A stretch of DNA of 51,501 nt from an uncultured Verrucomicrobiota bacterium (GTDB lineage Bacteria; Verrucomicrobiota; Kiritimatiellia; CAIKKV01; CAITUY01). Under the pieces are notes generated by a model, which saw only the letters and a program-made list of their open reading frames with translations, did no database searches and was not told the DNA's origin. This document shows, piece by piece, positions 1 through 36,995 of this stretch; within the stretch, counting starts at the first letter, position 1, and each line of letters starts with the position of its first letter. The position numbers and the translations under genes are program-made. The DNA is taken from the NCBI GenBank assembly GCA_964584205.1, contig CAZOZF010000005.1, forward strand, positions 1 through 51,501, in the 5' to 3' direction.

Positions 1-2
1 CG

Positions 3-17928: not shown

Positions 17929-17990
17929 AAAACGGTCTGGGAGAACCTGGGCGGAAGCGAAGCAACGAAACGGCGACGAAGGGTGCCTGA

Positions 17991-20900
17991 ATGTTTTTTC
18001 GCAGTTCACGAAAGAATGGCCAATGTTTCGATACTGCCCGCACGCCTTTTTTGATGGCGGGAATGATTCTTTTGGCTCATGCCGGTGTGGCGATGGACAA
18101 GGAGATTTCGTTGGTAACCCGGCAGCCGATTGGCGAACTGGCCGTTGCGGGACGCCTTTCGGTTGATCTTCATGCCGAATTCATGGTCTCCCGCAGCTAC
18201 GGGACGGAAACGGTCCTCAACTGGTACAACTGCGGGTATTCCGGCGGAGGCGGCAAGGATGGCAAAGTCACAACGGTGGGCGGGGATTTTGGGGACTTCG
18301 GGTTCCAGGTGCCTTATGCCGACCGGGAGAGGCGATATCCTCGTGCTGTGACCATCGACAACGTCCGTGCCGTGCATTTTGACGGCAACAATTTCCTGAA
18401 GGGAAATTTCCCTGCCGAAAGCAAGATAGCAGGAGCGCAGGGGCTGGCGCTTGAGGTCTGGTTCCGCTCCGGGACTCCGGCGAAGGGAGATGTGGTTCTC
18501 GGATGGCAGTCGAGGGACGGCAAGGAAACCTCGGCGTCGCTGGCTTTTCCCGTTGGGTTCACGGGATCCGGCATGTGGCGGCATTTTCTGGTAAATTGCA
18601 CTCCCGAGACGGAGGACTGGTACCTGGATGGGATGAAAATCTCCAGCGGGAAACGCAGCTTACTCATCAGGGAAGGGCATATCATGGTGCTGGGCGGGGC
18701 ATCGGCCTCGCAACCCTCCTTCAAGGGGGAGCTCGTGGCGGTCAGGCTCCATGATGAGACGATGACGGGTGAGGAGATCGCGCATAACTTTGCAGGCGGG
18801 GTGATGCTGGGGACCGCGATGCAGAACTGGTGGAGGACCGAACCGGATAAATGGTATGTGGTTGAATCCGAGCATTTCCGTCACGCGGTGGACAGGGAGG
18901 ATATGAAGAAGTGGGATGCGCGGGGGCTCAAGGAGTTCACCGAACGCGTTCCCGGAATGTTCAGGATGGCAGAGCTCATTTATCATATCTATTCCGAGCG
19001 TCTGGCCATGCGGTCATCAGTGGTGAGCCGGATGCCGGAGCACCGGGGTGATGGCATCAAATATAAGACGCCAATTCAACCTACTCCGGGGAACAGCGTG
19101 ATGGGGTGCGATGACGATTTCGGCTGGGCGTGCCAGTTCGCGGGGTTCATCAACCCCCATGAGCTTGTTCATGGTTGGGATGCACAGACGGGGGGCATGG
19201 CCGGCAACTACTGGGAGGTTCATGCCAATTTTCCGCAGACGTTTGCAGGAATCTATCAGCAGACGCCGGTCAGCACGGTATGGACGTCCCATCTCTTTCC
19301 GGCGAATGGGCGCACCTATTATGGTGACCAGTCCCTGTTTCAGCATTTGGCCCAGACCCCTGAATACGGCCCGATGTTCATCGCCAAACTTTGGTATGAT
19401 GGCCCAACGAAAAAGGGTGAGAACCCGTATCCATGGATTACGTTCAATCGGGTCAACCCGTATCCGGGCCGAACCCTGGCTGTGGAGCATGCCAGGATGG
19501 CGATGCGCAATGTTACGTGGGATTATGTGACCTACGCGGAGGCAAGGGACGGACTCGGTGGCAACACGCCCTTTGGGAATGACGGGGTTGTCAGCGGGGA
19601 AAACATCTTCCGTAGGGAATGGAACCAGCCGAATGACCGGAATAATCGGCATGGCCGCGCCATTCTTGAAAAGATTCCGTATGCGTCGGAGTGGTGGCGC
19701 GTACCGAAGTCCCAGGCGCCCCAGCAGTTGGGCTACAACATCTGCCCGCTGAAATTCAAGCCGGGCAGGGTGTCGGCCACACTGGCAGGCTATGTGGATG
19801 AGAATCGCGGTGGTGACTGGCGGGCTGGATTCGTCGGTGTTGATCGCGACGGCAAGCCAGTCTATGGGAATGTCTTCGCCCCCGGGACTGTGCAGGACTT
19901 TGACGTGACGGATGCCATCCGGGAGCTCTATCTGGTGGTCAGCGCCGTGCCCAGGAAGATAGTGGATATTGACATGTGTGGGGATTTCCGCTCATTCGCG
20001 CAGGAACCTTTCCCCTACAAGGTGAAACTGCAAGGCTGCGAGCCGCTGGATGTGCTTGTGCCTGAAAGACCGGATGTCCCCGGCAAAAGGCATGTTAATG
20101 GAGGCGGGTTCGTTGCAGCTTCCGCCAAGGTTGATGCGACGGCCTACGTCGGGCCCAAGGCCCAGGTACTCGGAAATGCCGTCGTTACCGGCAAAGCGAG
20201 GATCGAGGACTTCGCAGTTGTGAGAGATAACGCCAGGGTTTCGGATAGTGCCATTGTATCAGGCCATGCGCTGGTAATGGAAAGTGCGACGGTTTCCGGG
20301 AACGCAAAAATCCGCGATTATGCCAAGGTTAAGAACCGTACGGCCGTGTCAGGAATGGCGAGGGTGCTCGAGCATGCGACGATTGACACCGATAAGGCTT
20401 GTACTGACTGGGTGACCGTCAAAGGGAGTCCCTATGTCTACGGCGGGCGCCTGAGCGGGACCACGATGATCGACGGGTTTTATGCCAAGGGGCAGGACAA
20501 CGCGAAAGGAAAGTGGTTCACCTGGAGCTGGGGTAGTGGGAAGAATCCGGGTGAAAGTGATGAGGATTTCGGCGGGCTTTATGCCGCCTATGACTTTGAT
20601 AGCCCGCATGGGTGGATGGCCATTGACTCCTTTGGCGCCACCTGGGGCTATCTGGTCAATGGCGCCAAGGTCGAGATCATAAAGGGACGGAAAGGTGAAG
20701 TTCCTGTGGAGATAGGGGTGTTGTCCCTGAATGGCAGGGACCAATTTGTCGAATTGCCGAAGGATGTCGCCGACCTGCGAGACGCCACGATCAAGGCCCG
20801 CGTGTTATGGCAGGGTGGGGCGAATGAGCGGATCTTTGAGTTCTCGAATGATCGGAGGGATTTGGCCTATCTCACGCCATCCGCCAACCGGCGATGCGAG

Positions 20901-21188
20901 TTTGTGATGCGCGTGGGCAGCACGGAGCAACGCCTCGCAGGGCCGGAACTGGCGCGGGGAAAATGGACCGACCTGATGGTGGTCTTGCGCGAGGGGCATG
21001 CCACCCTGGTTGTGGATGGCAAGGTGGTGGCCGAAACCAACGCCTTGAAGCTCCACCTGGAGGATATTGCAGCAACGGAATGCACGCTCGGGCGGGGGAG
21101 GAATGGCGCATATTTCAAGGGGATGATTGATAGTTTCGTACTCCGTTTGGTAGGAGGCGAGATAGCATTGCCGCGGCAGGTTCTTTGA
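17991..21188 (+). CDS. Svx/AvrXca-like (DUF6055-type) HEXXH metallopeptidase with hexapeptide-repeat domain and two LamG-like domains
   Basis: HELVH at 19158-19172 followed by YWEVHANF, PQQLGYN, DWRAGFV, RHVNGGGFVAASAKVDATAYVGP and hexapeptide repeats. LamG-like ends (FKGELVAVRLH, YFKGMIDSF). True start may be slightly downstream. Confidence 0.7.
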   Translation: MFFRSSRKNGQCFDTARTPFLMAGMILLAHAGVAMDKEISLVTRQPIGELAVAGRLSVDLHAEFMVSRSYGTETVLNWYNCGYSGGGGKDGKVTTVGGDFGDFGFQVPYADRERRYPRAVTIDNVRAVHFDGNNFLKGNFPAESKIAGAQGLALEVWFRSGTPAKGDVVLGWQSRDGKETSASLAFPVGFTGSGMWRHFLVNCTPETEDWYLDGMKISSGKRSLLIREGHIMVLGGASASQPSFKGELVAVRLHDETMTGEEIAHNFAGGVMLGTAMQNWWRTEPDKWYVVESEHFRHAVDREDMKKWDARGLKEFTERVPGMFRMAELIYHIYSERLAMRSSVVSRMPEHRGDGIKYKTPIQPTPGNSVMGCDDDFGWACQFAGFINPHELVHGWDAQTGGMAGNYWEVHANFPQTFAGIYQQTPVSTVWTSHLFPANGRTYYGDQSLFQHLAQTPEYGPMFIAKLWYDGPTKKGENPYPWITFNRVNPYPGRTLAVEHARMAMRNVTWDYVTYAEARDGLGGNTPFGNDGVVSGENIFRREWNQPNDRNNRHGRAILEKIPYASEWWRVPKSQAPQQLGYNICPLKFKPGRVSATLAGYVDENRGGDWRAGFVGVDRDGKPVYGNVFAPGTVQDFDVTDAIRELYLVVSAVPRKIVDIDMCGDFRSFAQEPFPYKVKLQGCEPLDVLVPERPDVPGKRHVNGGGFVAASAKVDATAYVGPKAQVLGNAVVTGKARIEDFAVVRDNARVSDSAIVSGHALVMESATVSGNAKIRDYAKVKNRTAVSGMARVLEHATIDTDKACTDWVTVKGSPYVYGGRLSGTTMIDGFYAKGQDNAKGKWFTWSWGSGKNPGESDEDFGGLYAAYDFDSPHGWMAIDSFGATWGYLVNGAKVEIIKGRKGEVPVEIGVLSLNGRDQFVELPKDVADLRDATIKARVLWQGGANERIFEFSNDRRDLAYLTPSANRRCEFVMRVGSTEQRLAGPELARGKWTDLMVVLREGHATLVVDGKVVAETNALKLHLEDIAATECTLGRGRNGAYFKGMIDSFVLRLVGGEIALPRQVL

Positions 21189-21276
21189 AGAGCAATGTGT
21201 TCACTACTATTGGGTGACCTTTAGCGGCGGACGACATCACTTAAAAAAAGTCGCATAAAAAAAGTTGATCATAATA

Positions 21277-21305
21277 TTGACGACAACCAGATTTGGTATT
21301 ATAGT
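21277..21305 (+). promoter_or_regulatory. Sigma70-type promoter with a palindromic operator in the spacer
   Basis: TTGACG-17 bp-TATAGT, A-tracts upstream, ACCAGATTTGGT at 21286-21297. Confidence 0.75.
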
Positions 21306-21374
21306 GTTAAATACAGAAATCAAATATTGGTTTCAGCTAGCGATTTGTCGGTAAAATCAACTCGTGATGGGGGC

Positions 21375-24300
21375 ATGAAAATGAAAAAGGCAAAATTGTT
21401 AAGTCGCAGCTTGGTTTCCTTGGTTGGTGTAGCGGTATGGATGGCGCTGACAGGACCGGTGCAGGCGGTGAACTACACCAACATAGCGTCGGGGAACTGG
21501 GATTCGACGTCGGTGTGGTCAAACGGTGTGGTTGCTGTTCCGGGGGCCACGAATAGCGTCTACTTCTGGAATCCCAATCCGAGCTACAGCACCAATAACC
21601 AGTCCGGATCGTTCGTGCTCAACAAGTTACAGTTCGCGAGCAATAGCGTGACGTTTTCCGGAAACGATCTGCTGTTCACGAACAACGGCGCCACCATGCC
21701 CATGCTGTTCAAGGACGTCGCCTTTGCCATGACAAATAATGTGAACATGACGGCGGCAACAAATATGACAGTCTACGTGAATAACACGGTTGGCTCCGTC
21801 TTCATGAATGGCGCTGTGACGAGCTCATGTACATTGACCAAGACTGGGAACGGGGCAGTGTCTTTCGACAATGACAATGGATCCTCGTTCAGCGGAGTGC
21901 TTTCGATTATGAATGGTACGGTGCAAAGTATGCTCTCGGGCGCTTTGTCCGCCAAGCCCTTCGGTGCGGGCAGCATATCGCTTTACGGATGGGGGTCGGC
22001 CACGGTGACGCAACCCATGCTCTCACTCGTTCCCTCCCAGTCGGGGACTACGACATTGGCGGGTGGAACGACTCCGGGCAGCAAGCTCAGTTTCGAAGGT
22101 CTGACGTTCATCAATCTGACGACGAACGGGGCGGGGAGCCCCCTGACATTTACTTTTGGCCCAGGCAGTGGATCTGTCTTGAATCGCGTCAACCGCGGTG
22201 TTCTGGTATTCTCGGACCAGAATTCGGCAGACAACTTTCCCAACGTCACCGTCAATATGGGCGTGTCGAGCGGCAATAATTTCCTCATCAGCGGTGATGC
22301 GCCGGAAGTGAATAACGGAATGATTGAGCCCTACATGTTGGCCGCACGGCCGGGAGGACAAGGGAACGGAAGTTTTATGACCTATGATCCAAGTTATGGA
22401 TTTAAGGCTGTGACGACATACGACCTTACGAATACTTTTGACGGCTCAACAAGCGCCAAAAAAGTGATGATAACCGTTGCTACGAATCTTGCAGGGGCCG
22501 CTTCAGCTTACGCGGTGGCATTGTATGAAGGCCTGACATTGAACGGCACCCTGACCATCGGTGACGGAACGCACGTCGCAGGATTGGTGTTCAATGGGCC
22601 TGGCGGCGTGAGATCCATTTCCGGCAGCGGGACGCTGAATTTCGGTAACTCGGAGGGTGTTATCTACGTCAACAACTACAACAACATCATCGGAGTGCCC
22701 ATTACTGGTGCCAGCGGCATCACCAAGGCGCAAGGCAGGATTGTAAATGGCGCACTCATCCTGACGAACGATAGTCCCAACCTTATCGGGACAAGTACTG
22801 TCACCGACGGAACCCTTCAATTTGGCAATGGCGGGACCAAGGGGTCCATCGGTGGCAACTTAACTTTTCATCCGTCTGCCACATTGGCATACAGTCGGAC
22901 AGATACCAATTCACCGATCGGGGGGAAAATTATTCCCAATGGATGTAACATCAGCGTTAACTCCGGTACGCTGATCCTCAACTCCTCCAACCTGCCCGCT
23001 GACTCGTCGAACACCTTCGGCACGGCAACAGCGACTTATGGATTGGTTCTGAACGGTGCCGCGACATCAACGAATGTATTTAGTCTCATCAAGCCGAATT
23101 ACGCCACGGGGTCGCTGACCGTGAAGTCGGGTGTTAATATCGTCACGACGGCTAACTGGGCATTCGACCCCGCGGCCGGTACCAGTAGCGCAATGTACCT
23201 GACTGGCGGCGAATTGAATTCTTCCGGTTGGTTCATCCTGCCATACTCGTCCGGTGCGTCCTACTATATTGGGTTGACCGGAGGCACATTGAAGCCTGGT
23301 TCACTAAGTCTTGGGCGCACCGGCATAGGCCTGATCGATGTGTATAGTGGCGCCTTGGCGACAACGACCATTAATGTCCCACACGGTACATCCGGTAACA
23401 CAAGCGTATGGTATCAGGTTGGCGGGACGGTTTCCGGGACCTCTTTGGGGATCGGTGCGCAAGGAAATTACCCCAGCGGCCGGGGAGAACTCACTCTGGC
23501 GGGAGGGACGATGAGCGTCGGTACCGCAAACCTGTCCTATTGTACGAATGGCATCGGCGTGGCTAACCTGAACGGCGGCGTGCTTACCGCAGGTTGGGTT
23601 GGCCCTTTTGCTGGGGCGGGGAGCGCCAGTACGGGCCTCCTGAACTTCAATGGCGGAACTTTGCGGGCCGGTAAGGCCAACACCCCCTTCATTACCGGCC
23701 TGAGTGGTATATACGTTTATACCAATGGCGCCACGATTGATGACGGCGGATTTGCAGTCACTATCCCACAGGCATTGCAGGCGCCGACTGGCAAAGGGGT
23801 GATAGCGCTTCCGTGGGGCGGAACGTTAACAGGCTATAACGGAGCTCCCTATGTGTGGATCTCCGGAGGTAGTGGAACTGGCGCGACGGCTGTGGCGTTA
23901 TTCGACTACACTACCGGAAGTGTGACTGGGCTTGTTGTTACCTGCTCTGGGTGTGGTTTCAATGACAATGATATCGTAAATGTTACGCTGGTGGCTGGTG
24001 GCAAAGCCAACAACAGCCTTGGTACGGCCACCGTCGGCCCCATTTCCAGCGGTGGGTTGACCAAGTCGGGAGCCGGGACGCTGACCTTGAGCGGCACGAA
24101 CACATACACGGGTGTGACGACGGTCAGCAACGGGAAGCTAGTGATTTCGAGCACAAACGCACTGGCCTCATCGAGTGGGATAAATCTAACTGGCGGGACG
24201 CTGGTGGCAACAAATGTGCCCGGAGTCTTCCGTATTCCTTCGAGCAGCACAGTCAGCGTCGGGGCGAACAGCTCGTTCCTGGTGACAAACCTCTTGGTGG

Positions 24301-24683
24301 ATGCCGGGGCGACGATCTCACCCGGCGGGCCGGCGGCGATCGCGACCAACACGTTTGGGGTGAATTCGACTCACAAGCTGTCTATCTACGGGACGTACGA
24401 AGTGAACCTATCGAACGACGGGTCAGGCAGTTGCGACCGTATACAGGCAACGGGGGACCTGGACCTGAACGGCATGATGATCAGCTTGCCGGGTACCGTT
24501 GTTTACGATCAGGGGGTGGATTACGTGATTGCGACTTGCAGCAATACGCTCACGCAGACGGGGATAAGCATCAAGGAGCCGGCGCAGCAGGGGAAGTGGG
24601 TGCTTCGATATAATACTCTTACCACGCCTAAACAGGTCATCCTACGACGTGCGTCAGCCGGTGCGATGTTGATCGTGTACTAA
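21375..24683 (+). CDS. Large secreted beta-strand-repeat protein with passenger-associated (PATR-type) repeats; no beta-barrel
   Basis: Signal peptide, G/T/S/N-rich, LTKTGNGAV and GGLTKSGAGTLTLSGTNTYTGVTTVSNGKL repeats. Ends SAGAMLIVY. Confidence 0.85.
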   Translation: MKMKKAKLLSRSLVSLVGVAVWMALTGPVQAVNYTNIASGNWDSTSVWSNGVVAVPGATNSVYFWNPNPSYSTNNQSGSFVLNKLQFASNSVTFSGNDLLFTNNGATMPMLFKDVAFAMTNNVNMTAATNMTVYVNNTVGSVFMNGAVTSSCTLTKTGNGAVSFDNDNGSSFSGVLSIMNGTVQSMLSGALSAKPFGAGSISLYGWGSATVTQPMLSLVPSQSGTTTLAGGTTPGSKLSFEGLTFINLTTNGAGSPLTFTFGPGSGSVLNRVNRGVLVFSDQNSADNFPNVTVNMGVSSGNNFLISGDAPEVNNGMIEPYMLAARPGGQGNGSFMTYDPSYGFKAVTTYDLTNTFDGSTSAKKVMITVATNLAGAASAYAVALYEGLTLNGTLTIGDGTHVAGLVFNGPGGVRSISGSGTLNFGNSEGVIYVNNYNNIIGVPITGASGITKAQGRIVNGALILTNDSPNLIGTSTVTDGTLQFGNGGTKGSIGGNLTFHPSATLAYSRTDTNSPIGGKIIPNGCNISVNSGTLILNSSNLPADSSNTFGTATATYGLVLNGAATSTNVFSLIKPNYATGSLTVKSGVNIVTTANWAFDPAAGTSSAMYLTGGELNSSGWFILPYSSGASYYIGLTGGTLKPGSLSLGRTGIGLIDVYSGALATTTINVPHGTSGNTSVWYQVGGTVSGTSLGIGAQGNYPSGRGELTLAGGTMSVGTANLSYCTNGIGVANLNGGVLTAGWVGPFAGAGSASTGLLNFNGGTLRAGKANTPFITGLSGIYVYTNGATIDDGGFAVTIPQALQAPTGKGVIALPWGGTLTGYNGAPYVWISGGSGTGATAVALFDYTTGSVTGLVVTCSGCGFNDNDIVNVTLVAGGKANNSLGTATVGPISSGGLTKSGAGTLTLSGTNTYTGVTTVSNGKLVISSTNALASSSGINLTGGTLVATNVPGVFRIPSSSTVSVGANSSFLVTNLLVDAGATISPGGPAAIATNTFGVNSTHKLSIYGTYEVNLSNDGSGSCDRIQATGDLDLNGMMISLPGTVVYDQGVDYVIATCSNTLTQTGISIKEPAQQGKWVLRYNTLTTPKQVILRRASAGAMLIVY

Positions 24684-24728
24684 ACCCGTCCTGATTGTTC
24701 ATTCAGCGACTTTCGTGGGGGGGTGGTA

Positions 24729-26834
24729 ATGAAACTTAAACTGGTAAAATATCTCGCGGGTCTGATTGCGGCAGCGGTCTTGATGCCGGCCTGGGCGGTG
24801 GTGACTCCACCGGTCTATGAGGGATTCGAGACGAATGCGGCAGGGACGACACTATCGAGCATGACCAACCAGGGTTGGTCGGCCTCGGATGTGGACGTGG
24901 TGGTGATCGCCTCGAACTCGATGGGCGCAGCGGTGGCGGGGGGGACGAATGCGGTGGCCATCCCGCTGGGTGCGGTGGTTTCGAACCTGATGACCTCCGC
25001 CAGCCCCTCGGTGATCTGGGTGGATTTCCAGAAACGACAGTCGGTAATCCAGGCGGTGGATGAAACCGCTCTTCAGGTTGACAGCAATGCGGCGGTCCAG
25101 GTGTGCCTGAACACCAACCGGTCGGTGTGGTTGTATGACAAGGGTATCCCAGGGTGGACGAACCTGGTGACCGACTACTGGGGGACGAATGTATCCGCCT
25201 TCAGTACCAGTGACTGGACGCGGGTCTCGATATGCGAGAACTTCTCAACCAACAAGGCGGCCCTTTTCCTGGACGGCCACCTGATCCGGGATCAGATTCC
25301 GTTCATCACGAACCGCTCGTCCTTTGCCGGGTTCCGCTACGAGAATGGCGCCAGCGGGACGAACTATCTGGACGAGGTGCGGGTGTGGACCAACGTTCCG
25401 ACTGGTCTCTCGGAAGATCTCGACAGCGACCTGGTGGCGGATGCCCAGGAACTCCAGACGTATGGTAATATCTCAACGTGGCATCGTTGGACCAATACCG
25501 TTGCCACGACCGGTTCTGGTAGTGGTACGGTGACGCCTCCGTCCGGAACGACAACGACGGTGACGAACGGGGCTACGCTTTCCTACACCTTCACGGCGGC
25601 GGCGGGGAGCGGGATCAGTACGGTCAGGACGAACGGTGGGGCCTATACCTACAGCGGTGACGCCAAGACCGGCGCCTGCTCATGGGTGATATCGACGGAC
25701 GGCACCTTTACCGTTGTTTTTGATACGAAGACCAACTGGGCGGTTCCTTCCGATCTGGCGACGATCACCGGGGCGGTAGCCAATGCCCAGGCTGGCGACA
25801 CGATTGTGATCTCCAACGGCATGTCGGCCACGGATGTAACGCTGGACAAGCGATTGACGCTGGCCGGCACGAATGTGTCGATCACAGGAACATTGACGCT
25901 CGGCGAGGGAATCACCAACACGTTGAGCGCTTTTTCCAATCTGACCGTGTCCGTTGGACACGTTGGGACCAATGCCAGCCTGATAGTAAGCAATTCGTCA
26001 GTTGCCTTCACCTCGCTGGCAATCAGTTCCGGTGCTGTCGTACGGGTGATCAACGGTACGGTTACTGACAATGGTATTACATTGAGCGGAACCTTCACGC
26101 TGGATTCGACCTGGGGGCAAGGGTTGACACCGGTCGCGCTGAACTTTCTGGATACGTTTGAAGTCTATGGGGCGGGAACACGTGTGAGTGCGCTTGGAGC
26201 CTTTGGGTGGGGTGCTTCGTCGACGGGGGTTGTGGTTCAGGGAACAACTAAGTACGCGGGGAGTGGGGCGATGCAGGTCCCAACGGTAGCGGTGGTGTCC
26301 AACGCCATAGCCTCCAAGGCGGGTGAGACGAATATCTGGACCGATCTCTGGCTCAACGAGAGCAGTCATGTGGGGGATTTCCTGGCTGAGTCCATTGATA
26401 CCAATGCGTCGGTGCAGGTGTGTCTGACCACCAACAAGTTTCTGGCGGTCTATTATAACGAGGCTTGGCATATCTGCTCCAATGATGTGAGGAACATGAG
26501 TGTTGCGGGGGTCTACTCAAGTGGATGGGCCCGGGTGACCATCAACCAGAATTATGGAACCGGGAAAAGCGCGATTTTCCTGAATGGACGGTTATTGAGA
26601 CAGAACGTGCCGTTCATCAAATCGAGCCTGACCAAGTGCGCGGGACTGAAAGTGGTCGGAGGCGCGGAATCGGCGACGTATCTGGACAATGTCAGTCAGG
26701 CCACCAATGTTCCGGCGGAACTTAACACGCTGGCCTATGATGAGAATCTCAACGGCATTCCTGATGTGCAGGAGATCCACGGGAGTGGCGTGATCGCGCC
26801 ATATTCCGCTGGTTCGATATACTATATTCGGTAG
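24729..26834 (+). CDS. Secreted hypothetical protein with a duplicated beta-sandwich domain and DxDxDxxxDxxE-like calcium motifs
   Basis: Signal peptide. N- and C-terminal domains align (DSNAAVQVCLNTN / DTNASVQVCLTTN; ALFLDGHLIRDQIPFI / AIFLNGRLLRQNVPFI). Ends SAGSIYYIR. Confidence 0.8.
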   Translation: MKLKLVKYLAGLIAAAVLMPAWAVVTPPVYEGFETNAAGTTLSSMTNQGWSASDVDVVVIASNSMGAAVAGGTNAVAIPLGAVVSNLMTSASPSVIWVDFQKRQSVIQAVDETALQVDSNAAVQVCLNTNRSVWLYDKGIPGWTNLVTDYWGTNVSAFSTSDWTRVSICENFSTNKAALFLDGHLIRDQIPFITNRSSFAGFRYENGASGTNYLDEVRVWTNVPTGLSEDLDSDLVADAQELQTYGNISTWHRWTNTVATTGSGSGTVTPPSGTTTTVTNGATLSYTFTAAAGSGISTVRTNGGAYTYSGDAKTGACSWVISTDGTFTVVFDTKTNWAVPSDLATITGAVANAQAGDTIVISNGMSATDVTLDKRLTLAGTNVSITGTLTLGEGITNTLSAFSNLTVSVGHVGTNASLIVSNSSVAFTSLAISSGAVVRVINGTVTDNGITLSGTFTLDSTWGQGLTPVALNFLDTFEVYGAGTRVSALGAFGWGASSTGVVVQGTTKYAGSGAMQVPTVAVVSNAIASKAGETNIWTDLWLNESSHVGDFLAESIDTNASVQVCLTTNKFLAVYYNEAWHICSNDVRNMSVAGVYSSGWARVTINQNYGTGKSAIFLNGRLLRQNVPFIKSSLTKCAGLKVVGGAESATYLDNVSQATNVPAELNTLAYDENLNGIPDVQEIHGSGVIAPYSAGSIYYIR

Positions 26835-26932
26835 GATGCTGCCCTGTCGGCCAGGGTGGTGTTGGTTGGGTTATTCTGTAATAAGGTGTTCAGTATTGTT
26901 CTGGAAAAGTTTATCCCATAAATGGTGCTATT

Positions 26933-28261
26933 ATGAAATTGATCCATGCTGTTTTGTTGATGGCGCTGTCAGGGGTTGCGCTGTCCGGGCTTGGTGTCGC
27001 TGCGCCTGCTCGTCCGAACATCCTGGTGATGATCGCCGATGATCTCGGGTATGGCGACGTGAGTTGCCTGTCGCATGGTGTCGTGCAGACTCCCAATATC
27101 GATCGCCTCGCAACGATGGGCGTCAGGTTCACCGCCGGGTATGTGACGGCGCCCTTGTGCGCCCCCTCGCGCGCCGGCTTCTTCACTGGCCGCTACCAGC
27201 AGCGCTTTGCCTTCCTCAACAACGAGGGAGCCATCCCTGCGGATATTCCCTTGTTGCCGGGGGTGCTCCGGGCGGCGGGCTACTACACGGGGCTCATGGG
27301 CAAGTGGCATAGCGAGGGGCCGATGCCCTTCGAGCGCGGCTGCTTTGACGAGACACTGACTCCCCCCAAGTCCAGTCCCTGGGTCGATTATTTCAACCCG
27401 CCTATGGCCAGGAACGGCAAGGCTGAGCGGATGAAGGGCTACAGCACCGACATACTGGCGCATGAGGCCGAAGCGTTTATTGATAAGAATAAAGGCAAGC
27501 CATTTGCCTTGACTGTGACCTTCAATGCGCCGCACATCGGCCCGATCAAGGTGCCGCATGACAAGATCCGTGTGGCCTACGAGGCTGCCCGAGCCGTAGG
27601 CAAGGTCTATGACGCACCCAAGACGCCTACCGCCCGTCCCGGCGAGGCGGCGCAGTACTCCTCCCAATTCCCCGGAGACACGGCGCGGGCTGATACGGCC
27701 GCGACCATCGCCGCACTGGACGAGGCCGTGGGGCGCATCCTCGACAAGCTCCAGCAGGCTGGGGTGGCCAGCAACACCGTCGTTTTCCTGTTCGCCGACA
27801 ATGGCGGTCATCCTGAAAACCGTTCCGAAAACGGGGTCCTGCGCGACTACAAGTGGAGCCATTACGAGGGTGGCATCCGCGTGCCCTTCCTGGCCGCCTA
27901 TCCCGGAGTCTTTCCGGCGGGGGTGGAATATGCCAGGCCGGTCAGCACTCTGGACATCTATCCCACAGTGATGGCCCTGACCGGCGTGAAGCCGTCATCC
28001 GGACTGGATGGCGTCAATCTCGTTCCGTATCTGAAGGGAGAACAGGCGGGCTCACCGCACGAGTCGCTGTTCTTTCTCACCGGCGACAAGGGGGCGGTTG
28101 TCCAGGACCAATGGAAGCTGGTGGTGTTTCCCCGCGCCGCGGCCCAGTTATTCGATCTCTCGAGGGATATAGGGGAAAAGAATGATTTGGCCTCCGCCGA
28201 GCCCGCCAGGGTGCAGGCGATGAAGGCGCAATGGACCGCGTGGAAAACCCGGATGCCATAG
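26933..28261 (+). CDS. Secreted Cys-type S1 sulfatase (paralogue of 14198-15556)
   Basis: RPNILVMIADDLGYGD, CAPSR, GKWH. Near-identical to the paralogue. Confidence 0.92.
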   Translation: MKLIHAVLLMALSGVALSGLGVAAPARPNILVMIADDLGYGDVSCLSHGVVQTPNIDRLATMGVRFTAGYVTAPLCAPSRAGFFTGRYQQRFAFLNNEGAIPADIPLLPGVLRAAGYYTGLMGKWHSEGPMPFERGCFDETLTPPKSSPWVDYFNPPMARNGKAERMKGYSTDILAHEAEAFIDKNKGKPFALTVTFNAPHIGPIKVPHDKIRVAYEAARAVGKVYDAPKTPTARPGEAAQYSSQFPGDTARADTAATIAALDEAVGRILDKLQQAGVASNTVVFLFADNGGHPENRSENGVLRDYKWSHYEGGIRVPFLAAYPGVFPAGVEYARPVSTLDIYPTVMALTGVKPSSGLDGVNLVPYLKGEQAGSPHESLFFLTGDKGAVVQDQWKLVVFPRAAAQLFDLSRDIGEKNDLASAEPARVQAMKAQWTAWKTRMP

Positions 28262-28313
28262 CCGATGCTACAGGGAAATCGCCCGAAAAACAACTTTCAC
28301 AAAAGAATCAAGC

Positions 28314-29885
28314 ATGAGGAAATTTATTAGACTTGGTCTGGTAGGGTTTTTGCTTCCGGTGGTTCTTCAGGGCGCACAGACAGTTCAAACTGATGTCTGT
28401 GTTTACGGGGGGGCGTCAGGGGGCGTTGCCGCCGCCGTGCAGGCGGCGCGGCAGGGCAAGCGGGTTGCCCTTCTCGTGTTTAACAACCACCTCGGGGGAA
28501 TGAGCTCTTCGGGGCTTGGATGGACGGATATCGGGCATCTCGGAGATGCCTACATCCAGGGGTTGTCCCGTGAGTTTTATCAGCGTATCGCTAGAAAGTA
28601 TGGCACCGCTAAGATCAAGTGGGTATTCGAGCCGCATGTCGCAGAGAGTGTCTTTAATGACCTTATCAAGGAGGCGGGGGTGTCGGTGTATTTCGGGGAA
28701 CACCTGGCCCGAACCACCCTGGATGGGCGGACGATCACGCAAGTCACCATGGACAATGGCGATGTGTTCCATGCGAAGGTCTTTATTGATGCCTCCTATG
28801 AAGGTGACCTGATTAAGCAGGCAGGGGTGAGCTACACCGTGGGGCGCGAGGCCAACGCACAGTACGGCGAAACCCTCAACGGCATCCAGACCAGGACCCA
28901 CGGCAACCAGCTTCCCCACGGCATTGATCCCTATCGCGTCAAGGGCGATCCGGTGAGCGGTCTGCTTCCGGGCGTCAATGCGACGGCGGGCGGACCGGAT
29001 GGTAGCGCCGATACCAGGATCCAGGCCTACTGCTACCGGCTGTGCCTCACCGATGTCTCCTCCAACCGGGTCATGGTCGCCAAGCCCTCGGGATATAATG
29101 AGGCCGATTACGAGCTGCTATTCCGGGCCATTGAGGCCGGCCAGAAAAGCTCTTTCTTCAAGACGCAGGACCGTATGCCGAATCGAAAAACGGATTCCAA
29201 CAATGCGTCCGGAATCTCTTTCGATTTCATCGGTCATAATTACGACTATCCGGAGGCCGACTATGCGACACGCGCGCGGATCGCCAAGGCTCATGAGAAC
29301 TGGCAACGGGGCATGATCTGGACGCTGCAGAATCATCCGCGGGTACCCTCGGAGATCCGTCAAGCTTATGCGCCGTGGGGGTTGCCGGCGGATGAGTTCA
29401 CGGATAATGACCACTGGCCCTATGAGCTTTACATCCGGGAGGCGCGCCGGATGGTTTCCGACTACGTGATGACGGAGAAGAACTGCACCGGCGCCGTGGT
29501 CGCCGAGGATTCCATTGGCCTGGCGGCCTATACGATGGATTCCCACAATTGCCAGCGGATCGTGCTCAAGGGCGTCGTGAAGAACGAAGGGGACGTGCAG
29601 AAACGGCTCACGAAGCCGTTTCCCATTTCGTACCGGGCGCTGGTGCCGAAAGCAGGCGAGTGCGGCAATCTGTTGGTCCCCTGGTGCGTGTCGTCCACGC
29701 ATGTCTCATTTGCCTCTCTCCGGATGGAGCCCGTTTTCATGATCCTGGGCCAATCGGCGGGCGCGGCGGCCTGCCTCGCCATTGATGAAAAGTGTGCCGT
29801 GCAGCAGGTCCCTTATGAGAAGTTGAAGGCCCGGTTGCTCAAGGACGGCCAGCGGCTATCAGTTGACGAGGTCAAGTTGAAATAA
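28314..29885 (+). CDS. Secreted FAD-dependent oxidoreductase (FAD_oxidored family)
   Basis: DVCVYGGASGG, HLGGMSSSGL, FIDASYEGDL, LYIREARRM, SLRMEP. Signal peptide. Confidence 0.88.
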   Translation: MRKFIRLGLVGFLLPVVLQGAQTVQTDVCVYGGASGGVAAAVQAARQGKRVALLVFNNHLGGMSSSGLGWTDIGHLGDAYIQGLSREFYQRIARKYGTAKIKWVFEPHVAESVFNDLIKEAGVSVYFGEHLARTTLDGRTITQVTMDNGDVFHAKVFIDASYEGDLIKQAGVSYTVGREANAQYGETLNGIQTRTHGNQLPHGIDPYRVKGDPVSGLLPGVNATAGGPDGSADTRIQAYCYRLCLTDVSSNRVMVAKPSGYNEADYELLFRAIEAGQKSSFFKTQDRMPNRKTDSNNASGISFDFIGHNYDYPEADYATRARIAKAHENWQRGMIWTLQNHPRVPSEIRQAYAPWGLPADEFTDNDHWPYELYIREARRMVSDYVMTEKNCTGAVVAEDSIGLAAYTMDSHNCQRIVLKGVVKNEGDVQKRLTKPFPISYRALVPKAGECGNLLVPWCVSSTHVSFASLRMEPVFMILGQSAGAAACLAIDEKCAVQQVPYEKLKARLLKDGQRLSVDEVKLK

Positions 29886-29904
29886 CAGGCAAGGAAACCA
29901 AGGT

Positions 29905-32280
29905 ATGAAAACGATAAATCTGATCACCCTCATCGTCGTCGCCTGTGCATGCGCCCAGGCGGCCACGATTACAGTGGATGTAGACAAACCCGGCGTGAAG
30001 GTCAGCCCATTGTTGTATGGGATCTTCTTCGAGGAGATCAATCGAGCCGGGGATGGTGGCATCTATGCCGAAATGCTCCAGAACCGGTCACTCGAGGATG
30101 CCACCGTGCCGCTTGGTTGGACCGTTGTCAACGGCGCTGGCAAAATGACGCTCGACAAATCGCAACCGCTCAACGCCAACAACCCCACCAGCCTCCGCCT
30201 CGACGGTCAGGTCAGCGTCGCCAACAACGGCTTCAAGGGGGCGCCATACCAGTATGAGGTGGATCCGGCGAAATGGATGCCTGCATTCGAGAAGGGGGCG
30301 AAGGAGATGCCCAACGGGGTAGCCGTCCAACAGGGCAAGGAGTACCAGCTATCGCTTTATGCCCGCGGCCAAGGGCCGGTGACGGTTTCCCTCGAGAAGC
30401 AGGATGGCAAGGCGCTGGCTTCGCAAGAAGTCGGCGGTATCGGCGCGGAGTGGCGGAAATTCGATGTTGTCCTGACGCCGGTCGCGACGGAGCCGAATGC
30501 CCGGCTCGTTGTTTCATCCGCCGGTACCGTCTGGCTTGACATGGTGTCATTGATGCCGAAGGGCCGGATCTTCCGTGCCGATCTGCTCAAGATGCTTGCC
30601 GACATGAAGCCGGCGTTTCTCCGGTTCCCCGGTGGCTGCTGGGTCGAGGGTGATGAAATGCGTTTTGCATACCGCTGGAAGAAGACCCTTGGCGATGTCG
30701 CCGGGCGGCCGGGCCTCTGGAACCGGTGGGGTTACTACTCCACGGACGGATTGGGGATGCACGAGTACCTGCTGCTGTGCGAAGCGCTCAAGGCCGAGCC
30801 GCTATTCGTGATCAACTGCGGCATGTCGCACAAGGAGGTTGTTCCGATGGACAAGATGGATGAGTACGTCCGGGACGCGCTCGACGCCATCGAGTACTGC
30901 AACGGGTCTGTCGAGTCGAAGTGGGGCGCACTCCGGGCCAAGGCTGGCCACCCGGCGCCATTCAACCTGAAATATATGGAAATCGGCAACGAGAACGGCG
31001 GGCCGGCCTATCAGGAACGCTATCCGCTCTTTCACGACGCGATCAAGAAACAGTATCCCGACATGCACCTGATACTCGATTATGGGCCATCCAAAACGCG
31101 TCCGTCGGAAATCGTGGACGAGCATTACTACAACTCGCCTGAGTTCTTCATGCGGCAGGCCGACCGTTACGATCGTTATGACCGCGCCGGATTCAAGGTG
31201 TACATCGGCGAGTATGCTGTCACCCAGGGATCGGGCCGCGGAAATCTCCGCGGTGCGGTTGGCGAAGCCGCCTTCATGACCGGCATGGAACGCAACAGCG
31301 ATGTCGTCATCATGGGCAGCTACGCGCCTCTATTCGAACATGTCGGCTGGAAACGTTGGAATCCGAACGCCATCCTGTTCGATGCGGCTCGCAGCTATGC
31401 CACTCCCTCCTGGCATGTCCAGACCCTGTTCGGTAGCAACCGCGCCGATGTGGTCCTGCCGACGGCGGTCATGGCGCCAGAGATGGCGTCCACCGAGATC
31501 CGGAGCGGTTTCATCGGCGTCGGCGCCTGGAACACGCAGGTCGAGTACAAGGACATCAAGGTGACACAGGGCGACAAGGTCCTGTTGGAAGGCAGGAAAG
31601 GCTGGAAATTTGAGAGCGGCGATTGGAAATGGGATGGCGATGTGCTCCGCCAAAGCGGCAAGGGGGTGGACCTCCGCGCCTATGCCGGCCGCAAAGACTG
31701 GAAGGATTATACGCTGACGCTCAAGGCCTGCAAGCTCGGCGGGACCGAAGGGTTCCTCGTCATGTTTGCCGCGCCGGACAAGCGGGGCAAGTCCTGGTGG
31801 AACATCGGGGGATGGGGCAATTCGGCGCATTGTCTAGAGATCCGCGATGTCGAGAACAAGCGCGTTCCCGGCCGCATTGAGAGCGGGCGCTGGTACGACA
31901 TCAAGGTTGAGCTCAAGGGGCAGGCGATCCGCTGCTACCTCGACGGGAAGCTGATTCATGAAGTCAGTACGCCAGTGGTCAAGTCCATGTATGCGGTTGC
32001 CGGCCGTAGCGGGAATGATGTCATTCTCAAGGTTGTCAATGCCGCCAGTGCTTCGACAGAGACGACCATTGACTTGCGGGGTGTCACGAAACTCGCCTCC
32101 AAGGCTACGGTGACGGTCCTCACCAGCGCGAGCGGAGATGATGAGAACAGCTTCGATGAGCCGGTGAAGGTCGCGCCCAGGGAGACGACGATCACGAACA
32201 TGGCCCCGAGTTTTCAGCACACCTTCCCGGCCAATTCGGTGACGGTCCTGCGATTGCAGGCTGGTGGGCTGGAGCGGTAG
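29905..32280 (+). CDS. abfA: GH51 alpha-L-arabinofuranosidase (paralogue of 15553-17928, same 791 aa length)
   Basis: Same GH51 motifs (EIGNEN, IGEYA); colinear with the first copy. Confidence 0.92.
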   Translation: MKTINLITLIVVACACAQAATITVDVDKPGVKVSPLLYGIFFEEINRAGDGGIYAEMLQNRSLEDATVPLGWTVVNGAGKMTLDKSQPLNANNPTSLRLDGQVSVANNGFKGAPYQYEVDPAKWMPAFEKGAKEMPNGVAVQQGKEYQLSLYARGQGPVTVSLEKQDGKALASQEVGGIGAEWRKFDVVLTPVATEPNARLVVSSAGTVWLDMVSLMPKGRIFRADLLKMLADMKPAFLRFPGGCWVEGDEMRFAYRWKKTLGDVAGRPGLWNRWGYYSTDGLGMHEYLLLCEALKAEPLFVINCGMSHKEVVPMDKMDEYVRDALDAIEYCNGSVESKWGALRAKAGHPAPFNLKYMEIGNENGGPAYQERYPLFHDAIKKQYPDMHLILDYGPSKTRPSEIVDEHYYNSPEFFMRQADRYDRYDRAGFKVYIGEYAVTQGSGRGNLRGAVGEAAFMTGMERNSDVVIMGSYAPLFEHVGWKRWNPNAILFDAARSYATPSWHVQTLFGSNRADVVLPTAVMAPEMASTEIRSGFIGVGAWNTQVEYKDIKVTQGDKVLLEGRKGWKFESGDWKWDGDVLRQSGKGVDLRAYAGRKDWKDYTLTLKACKLGGTEGFLVMFAAPDKRGKSWWNIGGWGNSAHCLEIRDVENKRVPGRIESGRWYDIKVELKGQAIRCYLDGKLIHEVSTPVVKSMYAVAGRSGNDVILKVVNAASASTETTIDLRGVTKLASKATVTVLTSASGDDENSFDEPVKVAPRETTITNMAPSFQHTFPANSVTVLRLQAGGLER

Positions 32281-32307
32281 ACTCTGGCCGGAGAACAATA
32301 ATCGGAA

Positions 32308-34845
32308 ATGGCAATGAACAGATTTAACCCTATCAATATATTCATGCTTCCTGTCGTTGCCATGGCTTCCTCCGCGTGGGGAGGGGAAGGGGCATTGCCT
32401 CCCTTGGGTATGCCGGCGGTGACGAATGCCGTTGTCATGCAGGTTGAGCCGTTTGACCTCGCGGATGTGAGGTTGCTGGATGGCCCTTTCAAGCACGCGC
32501 AGGACGTCAATCGCGGACTGCTTGTGGACATGGATTTTGAGCGGCTGGTCCATCCCTTCCGGCGGGTGGCGGGGCTGCCCTCGCCCGTCGACTGGCCTGC
32601 AAACCTGGGGTATGCGGCAACGGGGCATACCGCGGGGCACTATCTTTCCGCCTGCGCGTTGCACTACCGGAACACGGGCGATACCGCGGTGAAACAGAAG
32701 GCTGATGCCGTGGTTGCCGAGATGGCGCGCTGCCAGGCGAAGATCGGTACGGGCTACCTGGGGGGCTTTCCGGAACGTTCCATGCAGGTTCATGCGCGGC
32801 TGGTGGATGATCCCGCGTTGAACGCCGCCGTGCCTTGGTATTGCCTGCACAAGATCTATGCCGGCCTGCTCGATATGTATGTGCTGACGGGGAACCGGCA
32901 GGCTCTGGAGGTGCTGATGAAGGTGGTGGATTGGGCCGATCAATACACGGCACAGTTCAACGACGCGGTGCTGCAGGGGATGTTGCGGGCCGAACACGGC
33001 GGCATCTGCGAGTTGTGGGCGAACCTTTATGCCGCCACGGGCGATGCGCGCTGCTTGCGGCTGGCGCAGCGGTTTGTCCATCAGGACCTGGTGGCCCCCG
33101 CGGCGCGGGGCGAGGATCTGCTGGACGGCCAACATGCCAACACGCAGATCCCCAAGTTCAGTAGCGTGGCCCGCTTGTATCAACTGGACGGCAACCTGAC
33201 GAACCTGTTGGGCGCGGCAAATTTCTGGCATTGCGTTGTGAACCATCATTCCTTTGTCACCGGGGGCAACAGTTATGCCGAAGCCTTCCGGCGTGATCTC
33301 TCCGCTTACCTGGGCACACGGGACGCCGAGAGTTGCAATGAATACAATATGCTGAAACTGACCCGCTACCTGTTCACTGTGGAACCGCGGGCGGAGTATG
33401 CGGACTACTATGAAAGGACGTTGTACAACCATGTGTTATCGTCGAGGCACCCGCAGACCGGGGGGCAGCTCTATTTCCAGCCGCTGCAAAGTGGCAATAT
33501 CAAGGGCGATCCCCTGGTAAACCGGGGGGTCCTGGGCTGGCGCTTCATGTTCAACAAGCATGCTCCTGAAGGGTGCCGGCCCGGCGGCGAGATGTGCTGC
33601 TGCTCCGGCTCAGGCTTGGAGAGCAATGCTAAATACGCGGACAGCATCTACTTCCATCATGCGGAAAGGGATCTCTATGTGAACCTGTTTATCCCGTCGG
33701 TGCTGGAGTGGAAGACCGCCGGGATCAAGATGCGGCAGGAGACCCGTTATCCCGAGCAGGCATCGACAACGCTGTTGCTGGACTGTCAGAAGCCCGTCGC
33801 CATGACTCTGCATGTCCGGCGTCCCTGGTGGGCCACCCAGTCGTTCGAGATCCGGGTGAACGGCCAACGGCAGGAAGTAGCCGCCCCCCCGGGGGCCTAT
33901 GTCAGCGTTGAGCGTACCTGGCAGAGCGGGGACAGGATGGATGTGTTCATGCCGATGAGCTTCCGAATGGAGGGTTTCCAGGATGAGCGCAGGCGGGGGG
34001 CCGTGATGTACGGGCCGCTGGTGATGGCCGCCGTGACCGGCTATGGAAACCCCTTTTCAGCGATCGGGGCGAAGGACGAGGAGGCCCTCGCCTCCCTCAA
34101 GCCTGTGGAGGGTAAGCGGCTGGAGTTTACGGGCTCACCTGAAATTTTCCGCACCTCGCCGCTGAAGGTGGCGGATCAAACGGTGGTGTTTCGTCCCTTG
34201 TACCAGATCTTTGAAACCCCGTCCGCGATCTACTGGGAGGTGATGGATCCGGCGATTCTCCGTAACGAGATGGCGCTTTTGGACAGGGAACTTCAGCGCC
34301 TCAAGGACCTGGAGCCCCGTACGGTGGATTGGGTGCTGTGTTATCCCGGAAACGAAATCTTCACGTTCCAGAGCCAATTACTAGCCCAGCCGGGTTGGCT
34401 ACCACGCCCGGCGCAACAGGTCACTGAACGGGCGCACGGCGTCAAGAACAAGGAGAACAGCCGCAAGCATTATCCGTGGCGGTTGGCCGAGATGTTCCTC
34501 GGTTACAAGGGTGAGTTCCGTCTGCTTGAACCTGGAACCTGGTGTTCTTACCGGATGAAGGTGCGCCCCGGCAGGGGCCAGACGTTGGAGGTCATCGTCT
34601 GGAAAACCAGGTTCAACGCAGAGAACACGCTTCTCAATCAAGGGGTTCTGGAAGTCGTGGTCGAGGGCCAGATGCTCGGAACGTGCGAGCCCGCCTCGTT
34701 TCCTGGTGGCCAGTTTACGAAGGTGTGCTTTTCGCTCCCGCCGGAGCGGATCGGGGCCAAGCGCGAGGTGGAGGTCCTGTTACGCGTGCCGGAGAAATCC
34801 CGTCCGGTGAGCGGGATCTACGAATGTCGAATGGTGACGAACTAG
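32308..34845 (+). CDS. GH127/GH146 beta-L-arabinofuranosidase-like protein
   Basis: GHYLSA, PWYCLHKIYAGLLD, EHGG, HANTQIPK, ESCNEYNMLKL, CCCSGSGLES (Zn-Cys site), YGPLVMA. Confidence 0.9.
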   Translation: MAMNRFNPINIFMLPVVAMASSAWGGEGALPPLGMPAVTNAVVMQVEPFDLADVRLLDGPFKHAQDVNRGLLVDMDFERLVHPFRRVAGLPSPVDWPANLGYAATGHTAGHYLSACALHYRNTGDTAVKQKADAVVAEMARCQAKIGTGYLGGFPERSMQVHARLVDDPALNAAVPWYCLHKIYAGLLDMYVLTGNRQALEVLMKVVDWADQYTAQFNDAVLQGMLRAEHGGICELWANLYAATGDARCLRLAQRFVHQDLVAPAARGEDLLDGQHANTQIPKFSSVARLYQLDGNLTNLLGAANFWHCVVNHHSFVTGGNSYAEAFRRDLSAYLGTRDAESCNEYNMLKLTRYLFTVEPRAEYADYYERTLYNHVLSSRHPQTGGQLYFQPLQSGNIKGDPLVNRGVLGWRFMFNKHAPEGCRPGGEMCCCSGSGLESNAKYADSIYFHHAERDLYVNLFIPSVLEWKTAGIKMRQETRYPEQASTTLLLDCQKPVAMTLHVRRPWWATQSFEIRVNGQRQEVAAPPGAYVSVERTWQSGDRMDVFMPMSFRMEGFQDERRRGAVMYGPLVMAAVTGYGNPFSAIGAKDEEALASLKPVEGKRLEFTGSPEIFRTSPLKVADQTVVFRPLYQIFETPSAIYWEVMDPAILRNEMALLDRELQRLKDLEPRTVDWVLCYPGNEIFTFQSQLLAQPGWLPRPAQQVTERAHGVKNKENSRKHYPWRLAEMFLGYKGEFRLLEPGTWCSYRMKVRPGRGQTLEVIVWKTRFNAENTLLNQGVLEVVVEGQMLGTCEPASFPGGQFTKVCFSLPPERIGAKREVEVLLRVPEKSRPVSGIYECRMVTN

Positions 34846-34900
34846 CGGAAAAGGTGCAGGTAGATACGATGATCATTTTCTTTTCCAAGGAGGCATCATC

Positions 34901-34987: not shown

Positions 34988-35014
34988 GGTTGCTGATGTT
35001 TCGAAAGGAGCCAA

Positions 35015-36913: not shown

Positions 36914-36995
36914 AACACTTTGCCGATTCTCTTGGTCCTATACACTTAGTCAGAATTCCCAGTCGTTCATGGAAGCATCAAGACGCGAGGTAGCA

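Follow-up and report, generated by a model that had tools for sequence, protein, structure and literature searches.

Tail-Carrying Gene Pair of the Window

The window analysed here is a stretch of 51,501 nucleotides from an uncultured Verrucomicrobiota bacterium of the class Kiritimatiellia (contig CAZOZF010000005.1, positions 1 to 51,501, forward strand). Two adjacent open reading frames (ORFs) of this window, both belonging to a polysaccharide-utilisation-type locus (Table 1), end with the nonapeptides SAGAMLIVY and SAGSIYYIR, each followed immediately by the stop codon, and the ORF listing confirmed the observation of a first-pass annotation that the tripeptide SAG occupies positions -9 to -7 in both. 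The analysis revealed that the pair represents a lineage-specific, strictly C-terminal tag of 7–9 residues, (P)-x-G-[ST]-h-h-x-h-X-COOH (h, hydrophobic), the cargo of which consists of Sec-exported, mostly large proteins of lectin, beta-helix or Ig type heading polysaccharide-utilisation loci.

Two flavours of the tail are distinguished below. The R-type tail has the form G-[ST]-[VI]-[FY]-x-[IF]-R, and the Q-type (non-Arg) tail consists of Gly and four or five hydrophobic residues followed by Gln or, less often, by Asn, Glu, Lys, Tyr or Trp. Within the genus, genes of the two flavours are usually neighbours on the same strand, with the Q-type gene in front, and the window contains one cassette of this kind. 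In the window cassette, the tail of the first protein has four hydrophobic residues and a terminal Tyr, and that of the second is of the Arg type. No further tail-type end was found among the 25 ORFs kept in the window, none of the other genes of the locus carries the tail, and the enzymes of the window are without such ends, as had been stated before. The stop codon of the first gene (TAA, 24681-24683) is separated by about 40 nt from the start of the second (GTG 24723 or ATG 24729), with a G-rich stretch ahead of it. Given the short gap between these co-oriented genes, the two are probably co-transcribed.

Table 1. Positions of the tail genes, their terminal peptides and the enclosing locus in the window.
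Feature	Position	Strand	Remarks
Upstream cassette gene	21327..24683	+	1118-aa ORF; likelier start ATG 21375 or 21381; Q-type (non-Arg) tail
Terminal nonapeptide of the first protein with TAA stop	24654..24683	+	Heptapeptide Gly-x-four hydrophobic-Tyr at 24660-24680
Downstream cassette gene	24723..26834	+	703 aa; ATG 24729 is an alternative start; R-type tail
Terminal nonapeptide of the second protein with TAG stop	26805..26834	+	Heptapeptide G-S-h-Y-x-h-R at 26811-26831; DNA pattern match at 26811-26834
Polysaccharide-utilisation-type locus, genes on one strand	1..40931	+	Contains both tail genes

The first protein (~1100 aa) consists of a Sec-type signal peptide and a PATR beta-helix, the PATR repeat (PF12951; E-value, 7.2e-10) being its sole Pfam match, accompanied by TIGR02601 in NCBIfam. 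Searches against Pfam and NCBIfam found no beta-barrel, PEP-CTERM or type IX secretion system (T9SS) domain in it, and its closest homologues, P0025 and P0026, have an identical tail. The second protein matches no Pfam family, and its lone NCBIfam match is meaningless (15.8 bits against a cut-off of 300). Its layout comprises a signal peptide, two concanavalin A (ConA)-like lectin or carbohydrate-binding-module-like domains flanking a beta-rich middle, an EF-hand-like DxDxDG loop, a free linker and the R-type tail. Thus, the earlier description of the first protein as autotransporter passenger repeats lacking a barrel, and of both proteins as lacking a PEP-CTERM, T9SS or LPXTG-like tail, was borne out by the profile searches; the last 40 residues of the two proteins gave no NCBIfam match even at E-values up to 10.

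An EF-hand- or dockerin-like loop, DxDxDGxxDAxE(I/L), follows each lectin-like domain of the second protein (residues ~232-248 and 673-688). The loop is conserved across the family of this protein, only its second copy precedes the tail, and the loop may be a calcium site.

Occurrence of the Tail in the Genome

The genome (3.58 Mb in 424 contigs) yielded 2719 ORFs with a home-made ORF caller, which together account for 88% of the DNA. From the internal frequency of the motifs, 0.37 R-type and 0.28 non-Arg ends would be expected in this set; five full-length proteins and one fragment with the former, and six proteins with the latter, were accepted. Even the loosest form, G-x-h-h-x-h-x, was found at the ends of 19 called ORFs against 8.4 expected. 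When the Arg-type tail plus stop codon was searched for as a DNA pattern, 14 matches were obtained, compared with one for the reversed control, and a true stop was present in 10 of the 13 places listed. The pattern G.[ILVMFY]{4}[RKY]$, which had been put forward for a proteome-wide check, matched five of the 2719 ORFs, two of them at the ends of transmembrane helices.

In total, 13 tail proteins were accepted, two each on contigs C2, C4, C5 (the window pair), C11 and C17, and one each on C158, C212 and C372. Further tail fragments are located at contig edges or in a short ORF (C94, C128, C145 and C371). All 12 tail proteins with an intact 5' end were positive for a signal peptide, compared with 690 of the 2435 other ORFs (Fisher p = 2.9e-7), which agrees with the enrichment in exported proteins anticipated by the first-pass annotation. 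Median length is 844 aa for the tail proteins and 389.5 aa for the remaining ORFs with a signal peptide. PATR repeats were detected in seven of them (in one together with Invasin/Big_1), fn3 and BACON in one, and PKD with a DUF4457/discoidin-like end in one, the others having no Pfam match; a catalytic Pfam family was found in none of the 13. At the other tail loci of this genome, AraC- or LacI-type regulators are followed by the tail genes and these, in turn, by genes for GH95, GH2, GH120 and esterases. The cassettes thus stand behind regulator genes and ahead of genes for glycoside hydrolases and sulfatases.

Stop-codon read-through or recoding was considered as a source of the shared ends and rejected, since all three types of stop codon are used after the tails and the next gene has its own signal peptide.

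Distribution within the Phylum

The Arg-type DNA pattern was scanned over 301 genomes of the phylum with the reversed pattern as a control. Matches numbered 40 in genome G034 (control, 6), 23 in G064 (control, 3), 16 in G011 (control, 2), 14 in the window's own genome, G000 (control, 1), 11 in G068 (control, 5) and 8 in G303 (control, 1). By contrast with G034, two matches were obtained for G050, a genome of the same genus as G034. G081, which belongs to the same genus as the window's genome, gave 25 matches (control, 2). Across the whole set, a clear excess is limited to some genomes of the window's own class. About 200 genomes of other classes gave at most eight matches each, with controls of similar size; the Arg-type pattern is narrow, and variants of the tail are possible in other lineages. 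The homologues of the tail proteins are labelled Verrucomicrobia in the source records.

In G034, repeated units were observed (L067-L070), each composed of genes for a PQQ/BamB-like beta-propeller protein of ~715-755 aa with a conserved end of its own, a ~460-aa beta-helix protein with an R-type tail, and a GH123-type enzyme.

Conservation of the Tail

The second protein has 24 homologues in the database (28-100% identity), and every one of them ends with the R-type tail. A profile was built from 24 right-justified sequences, namely, the window protein and 23 homologues, one identical fragment being excluded. Terminal Arg (-1), Phe or Tyr at -4 and Val or Ile at -5 are present in 24/24 sequences, Gly at -7 in 23/24, Ile or Phe at -2 in 22/24, Ser or Thr at -6 in 19/24 and Pro at -9 in 17/24, and position -3 is variable. 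Column entropy is 0-1.6 bits at -9, -7, -6, -5, -4, -2 and -1, compared with 2.5-3.5 bits at -8 and in the linker at -10 to -18. Thus, of the motif originally read from the two window proteins, SAG-x-(hydrophobic)4-[Y/R], the terminal motif as such was retained, whereas the Ser-Ala pair proved not to be conserved and the consensus was revised to the form given above. The codons used for the shared heptapeptide differ between genes and genomes (TCN or AGC for Ser, CGN or AGR for Arg), indicating that selection acts on the protein and not on the DNA.

Structure Models

For the second window protein, AlphaFold2 gave a model (24-row alignment) with a mean predicted local distance difference test score (pLDDT) of 82, in which a beta-rich middle lies between two jelly-roll domains. 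The last helix extends to residue 688, and residues 689-703 are modelled as coil with block mean pLDDT values of 56 and 39. The best matches of the model in the PDB (E-values, 3e-6 to 4e-4) are lectin-type modules, namely, the sialic-acid-binding wing of Vibrio cholerae sialidase, domain 4 of arabinanase AbnA, the mannose-binding protein YwfG and, from the binding domains of clostridial neurotoxins, the lectin-like half. On the basis of this fold resemblance, the second protein may be regarded as lectin-like.

The second model was built for a tail protein of 245 aa encoded on contig C372 (21-row alignment; pLDDT, 88.5; predicted template modelling score, 0.86). Its last strand spans residues 234-236, and the tail is again coil, with a mean pLDDT of 44. 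In the models of two unrelated cargo proteins, the tail thus does not form a strand of the last domain. As far as monomer predictions go, this argues against the structural-strand explanation that the first-pass annotation had named as a refuting outcome.

The C372 gene (C372:137-874) encodes a small single-domain tail protein, and the domain has 982 relatives at E-values up to 0.001. Foldseek returned no match to the model at E-values up to 0.001. VIA-align gave, as the one notable PDB neighbour, the Bacteroides DUF4876 protein BT_1938 (4q1z; Z, 7.8; root-mean-square deviation, 4.2; 183 aligned residues), a Z value that is common for this tool.

These data bear on the explanation that the tail has no separate function, in which case it would be a structural strand closing the final domain or the decaying remnant of a PEP-CTERM domain that has been truncated. 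The tail is indeed hydrophobic and strand-like, and it derives from PEP-CTERM positions, as described below. However, it is a low-confidence coil in two otherwise confident models, it follows unrelated last domains, it is far more conserved than the adjoining linker, and it is retained in homologues of 28-35% overall identity. We therefore consider a functionless tail to be highly improbable.

Two Flavours on Adjacent Genes

The first-pass annotation treated the two ends as one shared nonapeptide. The common Gly-hydrophobic pattern was upheld, but the tails are not of one type: two flavours are paired on adjacent genes, which is a new finding of this analysis. In the window's own genome, contigs C2, C5 and C11 each carry an Arg tail gene with a non-Arg tail gene immediately upstream of it; on C158, a non-Arg tail gene is followed by a gene for a paralogue of the second window protein, which is truncated by the contig end. 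The pair is in the reverse order on C17, and on C4 the two tail genes are three genes apart. Overall, four of the five R-type genes with visible neighbours are paired.

The same arrangement was observed on a larger scale in G081, in which 20 regions around Arg-type matches, corresponding to 20 Arg-type genes, were inspected and the flavour consensus was read by eye. In 17 of them, the R-type gene adjoins a same-strand gene with a hydrophobic non-Arg end, and this partner is located upstream in 16 of the 17 cases (12 partners pass the strict regular expression, two a relaxed one, and three were judged by eye only); the other three R-type genes have no adjacent partner. The upstream tails of G081 mostly end with Gln, and sometimes with Glu, Asn, Lys, Met or Phe. 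Flavour pairs are also present in G122 and, on another protein family, in G099.

After removal of the last 12 residues, the 40 proteins of the G081 cassettes fall into eight BLAST clusters, with detectable similarity in 21 of the 190 upstream–upstream and 61 of the 190 downstream–downstream pairs. In four cassettes, the two partners are paralogues with 46-67% identity extending to within one residue of the removed 12, yet one carries a Gln-type and the other an Arg-type tail; the partners of a fifth cassette align at 33%. The distinct flavours on paralogous partners indicate that the flavour is held apart from the protein body.

In the G081 loci L075, L084, L085 and L086, the downstream Arg-tail proteins consist of two or three tandem units, each 46-96% identical to the whole upstream protein. 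The cassettes of this genome seem to grow by duplication and fusion.

The pairing raises the question of whether the cassette partners assemble with each other through donor strands. According to this explanation, the R-type tail of the downstream partner would insert into its upstream neighbour, or vice versa, with the other flavour fixing the pair to an anchor; a two-part surface complex would thereby be ordered in the manner of pilus subunits. The tight pairing in G081 and in the window's own genome, supplemented by G122 and G099, speaks for it, as do the distinct flavours on closely similar bodies and the tails that are free in the monomer models. On the other hand, G034, G064 and G011 have R-type tails in abundance but no Q-type partners for them, and single-tail genes exist (L073; R13 in L083, G081). 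Donor-strand assembly of the partners is therefore judged unlikely.

Relation to PEP-CTERM and Exosortase

In three unrelated families, tails were found at the position that PEP-CTERM domains occupy in related proteins. Among the best 120 relatives of the C-terminal third of the first window protein (PATR family), seven have PEP-CTERM-like ends and six have tails recognised by regular expression; several more show tail-like Gly-Thr-hydrophobic ends, seen by eye only, and most of the others are Salmonella autotransporters with the barrel PF03797. In the C212 family, homologue P0150 carries the Pfam PEP-CTERM domain directly after the conserved last strand, exactly where the protein of the window genome, P0145, P0146 and P0153 have tails. 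Of 150 representatives of the C372 family, 12 are PEP-CTERM-like, five have another helix-plus-basic end and nine have tails, the other 124 being mostly long proteins with the domain in an internal position. In a MAFFT alignment, the tails of this family are in register with the PEP-CTERM domains, and in its member P0241 a Pro-Glu-Pro motif stands immediately ahead of the tail. Judged by this positional equivalence, the tail looks like a PEP-CTERM domain cut down to the Pro motif, Gly-Ser/Thr, a short series of hydrophobic residues and a single basic one.

A third type of ending, an aromatic residue and Arg followed by a few residues and a final Pro, was noted in the PATR relatives P0030, P0032, P0042, P0045, P0047 and P0065.

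The window's own genome encodes four exosortase-family proteins (L008-L011, on contigs C65, C68, C3 and C15): an XrtA-like one with EpsI, an XrtC-like one with a PrsT-type TPR protein, one fused to a TPR protein of ~1000 aa, and a divergent one. In this genome, a single PEP-CTERM match exceeded the cut-off (C343) and a single VPDSG-like end was detected (C24), so that the substrates of the four enzymes are largely unaccounted for. In the tail-rich genomes G034 (94% complete) and G064 (93% complete), however, there is no exosortase over the cut-off and no PEP-CTERM match, while G081, G011 and G303 possess exosortases together with a few small canonical PEP-CTERM proteins each. Since the tail is abundant in two genomes without an exosortase, this enzyme is unlikely to be its reader, and it was rejected as a candidate also because the genomes that do have it contain canonical substrates of their own.

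The explanation that the tail is a miniature PEP-CTERM still cut or transferred by an exosortase-family enzyme has to be weighed against the same data. It would account for the identical position and the similar order of elements (Pro motif, Gly-Ser/Thr, hydrophobic run, terminal basic residue), for the Pro-Glu-Pro motif of P0241, and for the presence of four exosortase-family genes beside a single PEP-CTERM match over the cut-off in the window's own genome. It is opposed by the absence of a membrane-spanning segment from the tail, by the two exosortase-free genomes and by the canonical PEP-CTERM proteins of the others, and is thus given very little weight.

Gene Content of the Surrounding Locus

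The enzymes encoded in the locus comprise GH120, the products of five sulfatase genes, a SASA acetylesterase, GH2, GH95, two GH51-type arabinofuranosidases, GH127 and two flavin adenine dinucleotide (FAD) oxidoreductases. The other genes code for a DUF6055/LamG protein and a GntR/LacI-type regulator. Directly upstream of the cassette (17991-21188, + strand), a tailless protein of 1065 aa is encoded, with a DUF6055/Svx-AvrXca-like region, a hexapeptide-repeat beta-helix stretch and a C-terminal LamG domain. In the product of the ORF at 3344-5485 (+), the SASA acetylesterase is joined to a stretch matching positions 1-129 of the sulfatase model, and the ORF at 5416-6858 (+), in a different frame, begins at position 129 of that model; the two look like one esterase-sulfatase gene split by a frameshift, due to either an assembly error or a pseudogene. 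A scan for related loci by a single protein returned just one close relative, in an uncultured bacterium.

Search for a Reader of the Tail

The genes neighbouring the tail genes code for regulators, ABC transporter parts, TPR proteins, glycoside hydrolases, esterases and PQQ-type propellers. Of the proposal that the tail is a sorting signal served by a dedicated system, the part that received support is a selected terminal motif on signal-peptide proteins of unrelated architecture; a role in export or anchoring is putative, and dedicated machinery was not found in the neighbourhoods. An orphan TonB was considered as a partner and dropped, because the TonB gene of this genome adjoins a TonB-dependent transporter gene and there are three such transporters with ordinary boxes (N-terminal; D-x-I-V-V-T-[AG]), and nothing indicated that TonB has the tails as clients. 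Outer-membrane candidates, including BamA, two FadL-family barrels, porins and several small barrels without a family, were also considered, and none could be linked to the tails.

Tail-specific proteases read nonpolar C-termini, and the tail might accordingly be a handle for a periplasmic PDZ-type protease that recognises C-termini, either as a maturation site or as a degron clearing cargo that is stuck in the periplasm. A free, hydrophobic and strictly terminal peptide would suit such an enzyme. The invariant terminal Arg (24/24) and the upstream Pro-x-Gly are, however, unlike the preference of these proteases, and two flavours kept apart on paralogues are hard to square with a degron, which makes a protease handle very unlikely.

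Comparison with Known C-Terminal Signals

The closest known system is PEP-CTERM/exosortase (TIGR02595, PF07589; PF09721). Both elements are strictly C-terminal, mark Sec-exported surface-type proteins of diderms, including PATR proteins, and occupy the same place after the last domain in three families, with a similar order of elements. The tail differs from PEP-CTERM in its length of 7–9 residues, which is too short for a membrane span, in having one terminal Arg or none instead of an Arg cluster, in matching no PEP-CTERM model, in its bulk presence in exosortase-free genomes and in its two flavours. Two defining features of that system, the membrane helix with Arg cluster and the dependence on exosortase, are thus absent.

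In a preprint, the LPXTG/sortase, GlyGly-CTERM/rhombosortase, MYXO-CTERM/myxosortase and PGF-CTERM/archaeosortase systems are described as combining a signature motif, a transmembrane helix and a basic cluster with cleavage by an intramembrane enzyme (10.1101/2023.06.07.544157). The tail resembles these tripartite sorting domains in being a small C-terminal tag on otherwise unrelated exported proteins of one lineage, but it has no helix, invariant Cys or known enzyme. No LPXTG motif or helix was present in the tail-protein ends inspected and no model matched them; sortase genes were not searched for.

The C-terminal domain of T9SS substrates (TIGR04183, Por_Secre_tail) likewise marks surface or secreted proteins, including glycan-degrading ones, but it is a folded domain of ~80 residues and has no match in either window protein. 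Type Va autotransporters differ in their C-terminal 12-stranded barrel (PF03797), which the first window protein lacks. The beta-signal of outer-membrane proteins, read by BamA/BamD, resembles the tail in that it is located at the end of an exported protein, as a strand whose last residue is conserved; it is, however, the last strand of a barrel, with a terminal aromatic residue and alternating hydrophobics, whereas the R-type tail ends with Arg and the cargo has soluble-type beta-helix or lectin folds. The models show lectin-like sandwiches and beta-rich domains and no barrel.

With regard to a possible mode of action, the TonB box of TonB-dependent transporters and the donor strands of chaperone-usher and type V pili are short strands that act by beta-strand addition. 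By analogy, the tail may be compared with them as a short hydrophobic strand that is unfolded alone, and in pili the flavours of the strand specify the sockets. The TonB box is N-terminal on transporters, whereas the tail is C-terminal on proteins that are not transporters, and pilus donor strands are part of pilin folds, so that the resemblance would extend to the likely mode of action only.

No description of such a tail was found among the titles and abstract openings of the papers retrieved. A term search of the first Kiritimatiella genome paper (PMC5148204) gave no mention of PEP-CTERM, exosortase, sorting or C-terminal, and Kiritimatiell- or Lentisphaer- do not occur in the accessible part of the above-mentioned preprint. 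Therefore, the tail is probably an undescribed C-terminal tag, and a function of its own is plausible.

Proposed Function

The reading that we favour, with a confidence that is about evenly balanced, is that the tail is a free docking or sorting strand by which glycan-binding proteins are retained at the cell envelope. Once the protein has been exported by the Sec route, the tail would stay unfolded and provide a free beta-strand handle, which would dock by strand addition onto an envelope receptor. Docked in this way, the glycan-binding proteins would remain on the outer membrane or the cell surface, close to the enzymes encoded in the same locus, and the two flavours would address two different sockets.

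Several points weigh against this docking model. No recurrent candidate reader was found near the tail genes in five loci of the window's own genome, 20 regions of G081 and four regions of G034, and the own genome retains four genes of the exosortase family, although canonical substrates are very scarce in it. Low confidence for the tail in monomer models says little in favour of a free strand, as a degron or a cleaved propeptide would look alike. The gene caller and the signal-peptide rule were home-made, the latter being liberal (26% positive), and the regular expressions for the motif were tuned after the data had been seen. A single family of beta-helix paralogues accounts for a large part of the 40 matches of G034, related genomes do not count as independent cases, and duplication may raise the number of cassettes. 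The Gln-ending DNA pattern is clearly enriched only in G081 (20 matches against 3), perhaps also in G001 (14 against 5), and is not enriched in G034, G064 and G011; since the R-type tails of these three genomes are without Q-type partners, the pairing is not general but a feature of the window's lineage.

A more far-reaching version of the docking model, which we regard as doubtful, would treat the tails as an envelope assembly code. The two flavours would then be C-terminal donor strands for two sockets on an outer-membrane platform or partner, together forming a glycan-capture device of two components, encoded where each polysaccharide-utilisation locus begins. If true, this device would be a functional counterpart of the SusC/SusD-type front end that requires neither a sortase-like enzyme nor a membrane anchor.

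The window's lineage consists of specialist degraders of sulfated and complex polysaccharides, and the question addressed by the tail is how such degraders hold many large binding proteins at the cell surface. The system is open to experiments with peptides and tail swaps and to phylogenetic profiling. If the docking model is true, a seven-residue tag in the place of PEP-CTERM, exosortase-free and with two paired flavours, would add to the catalogue of sorting signals a type without a membrane segment, and could serve as a very small tag for surface display. It would also provide a simple sequence rule for predicting the surface proteome across an uncultured class.

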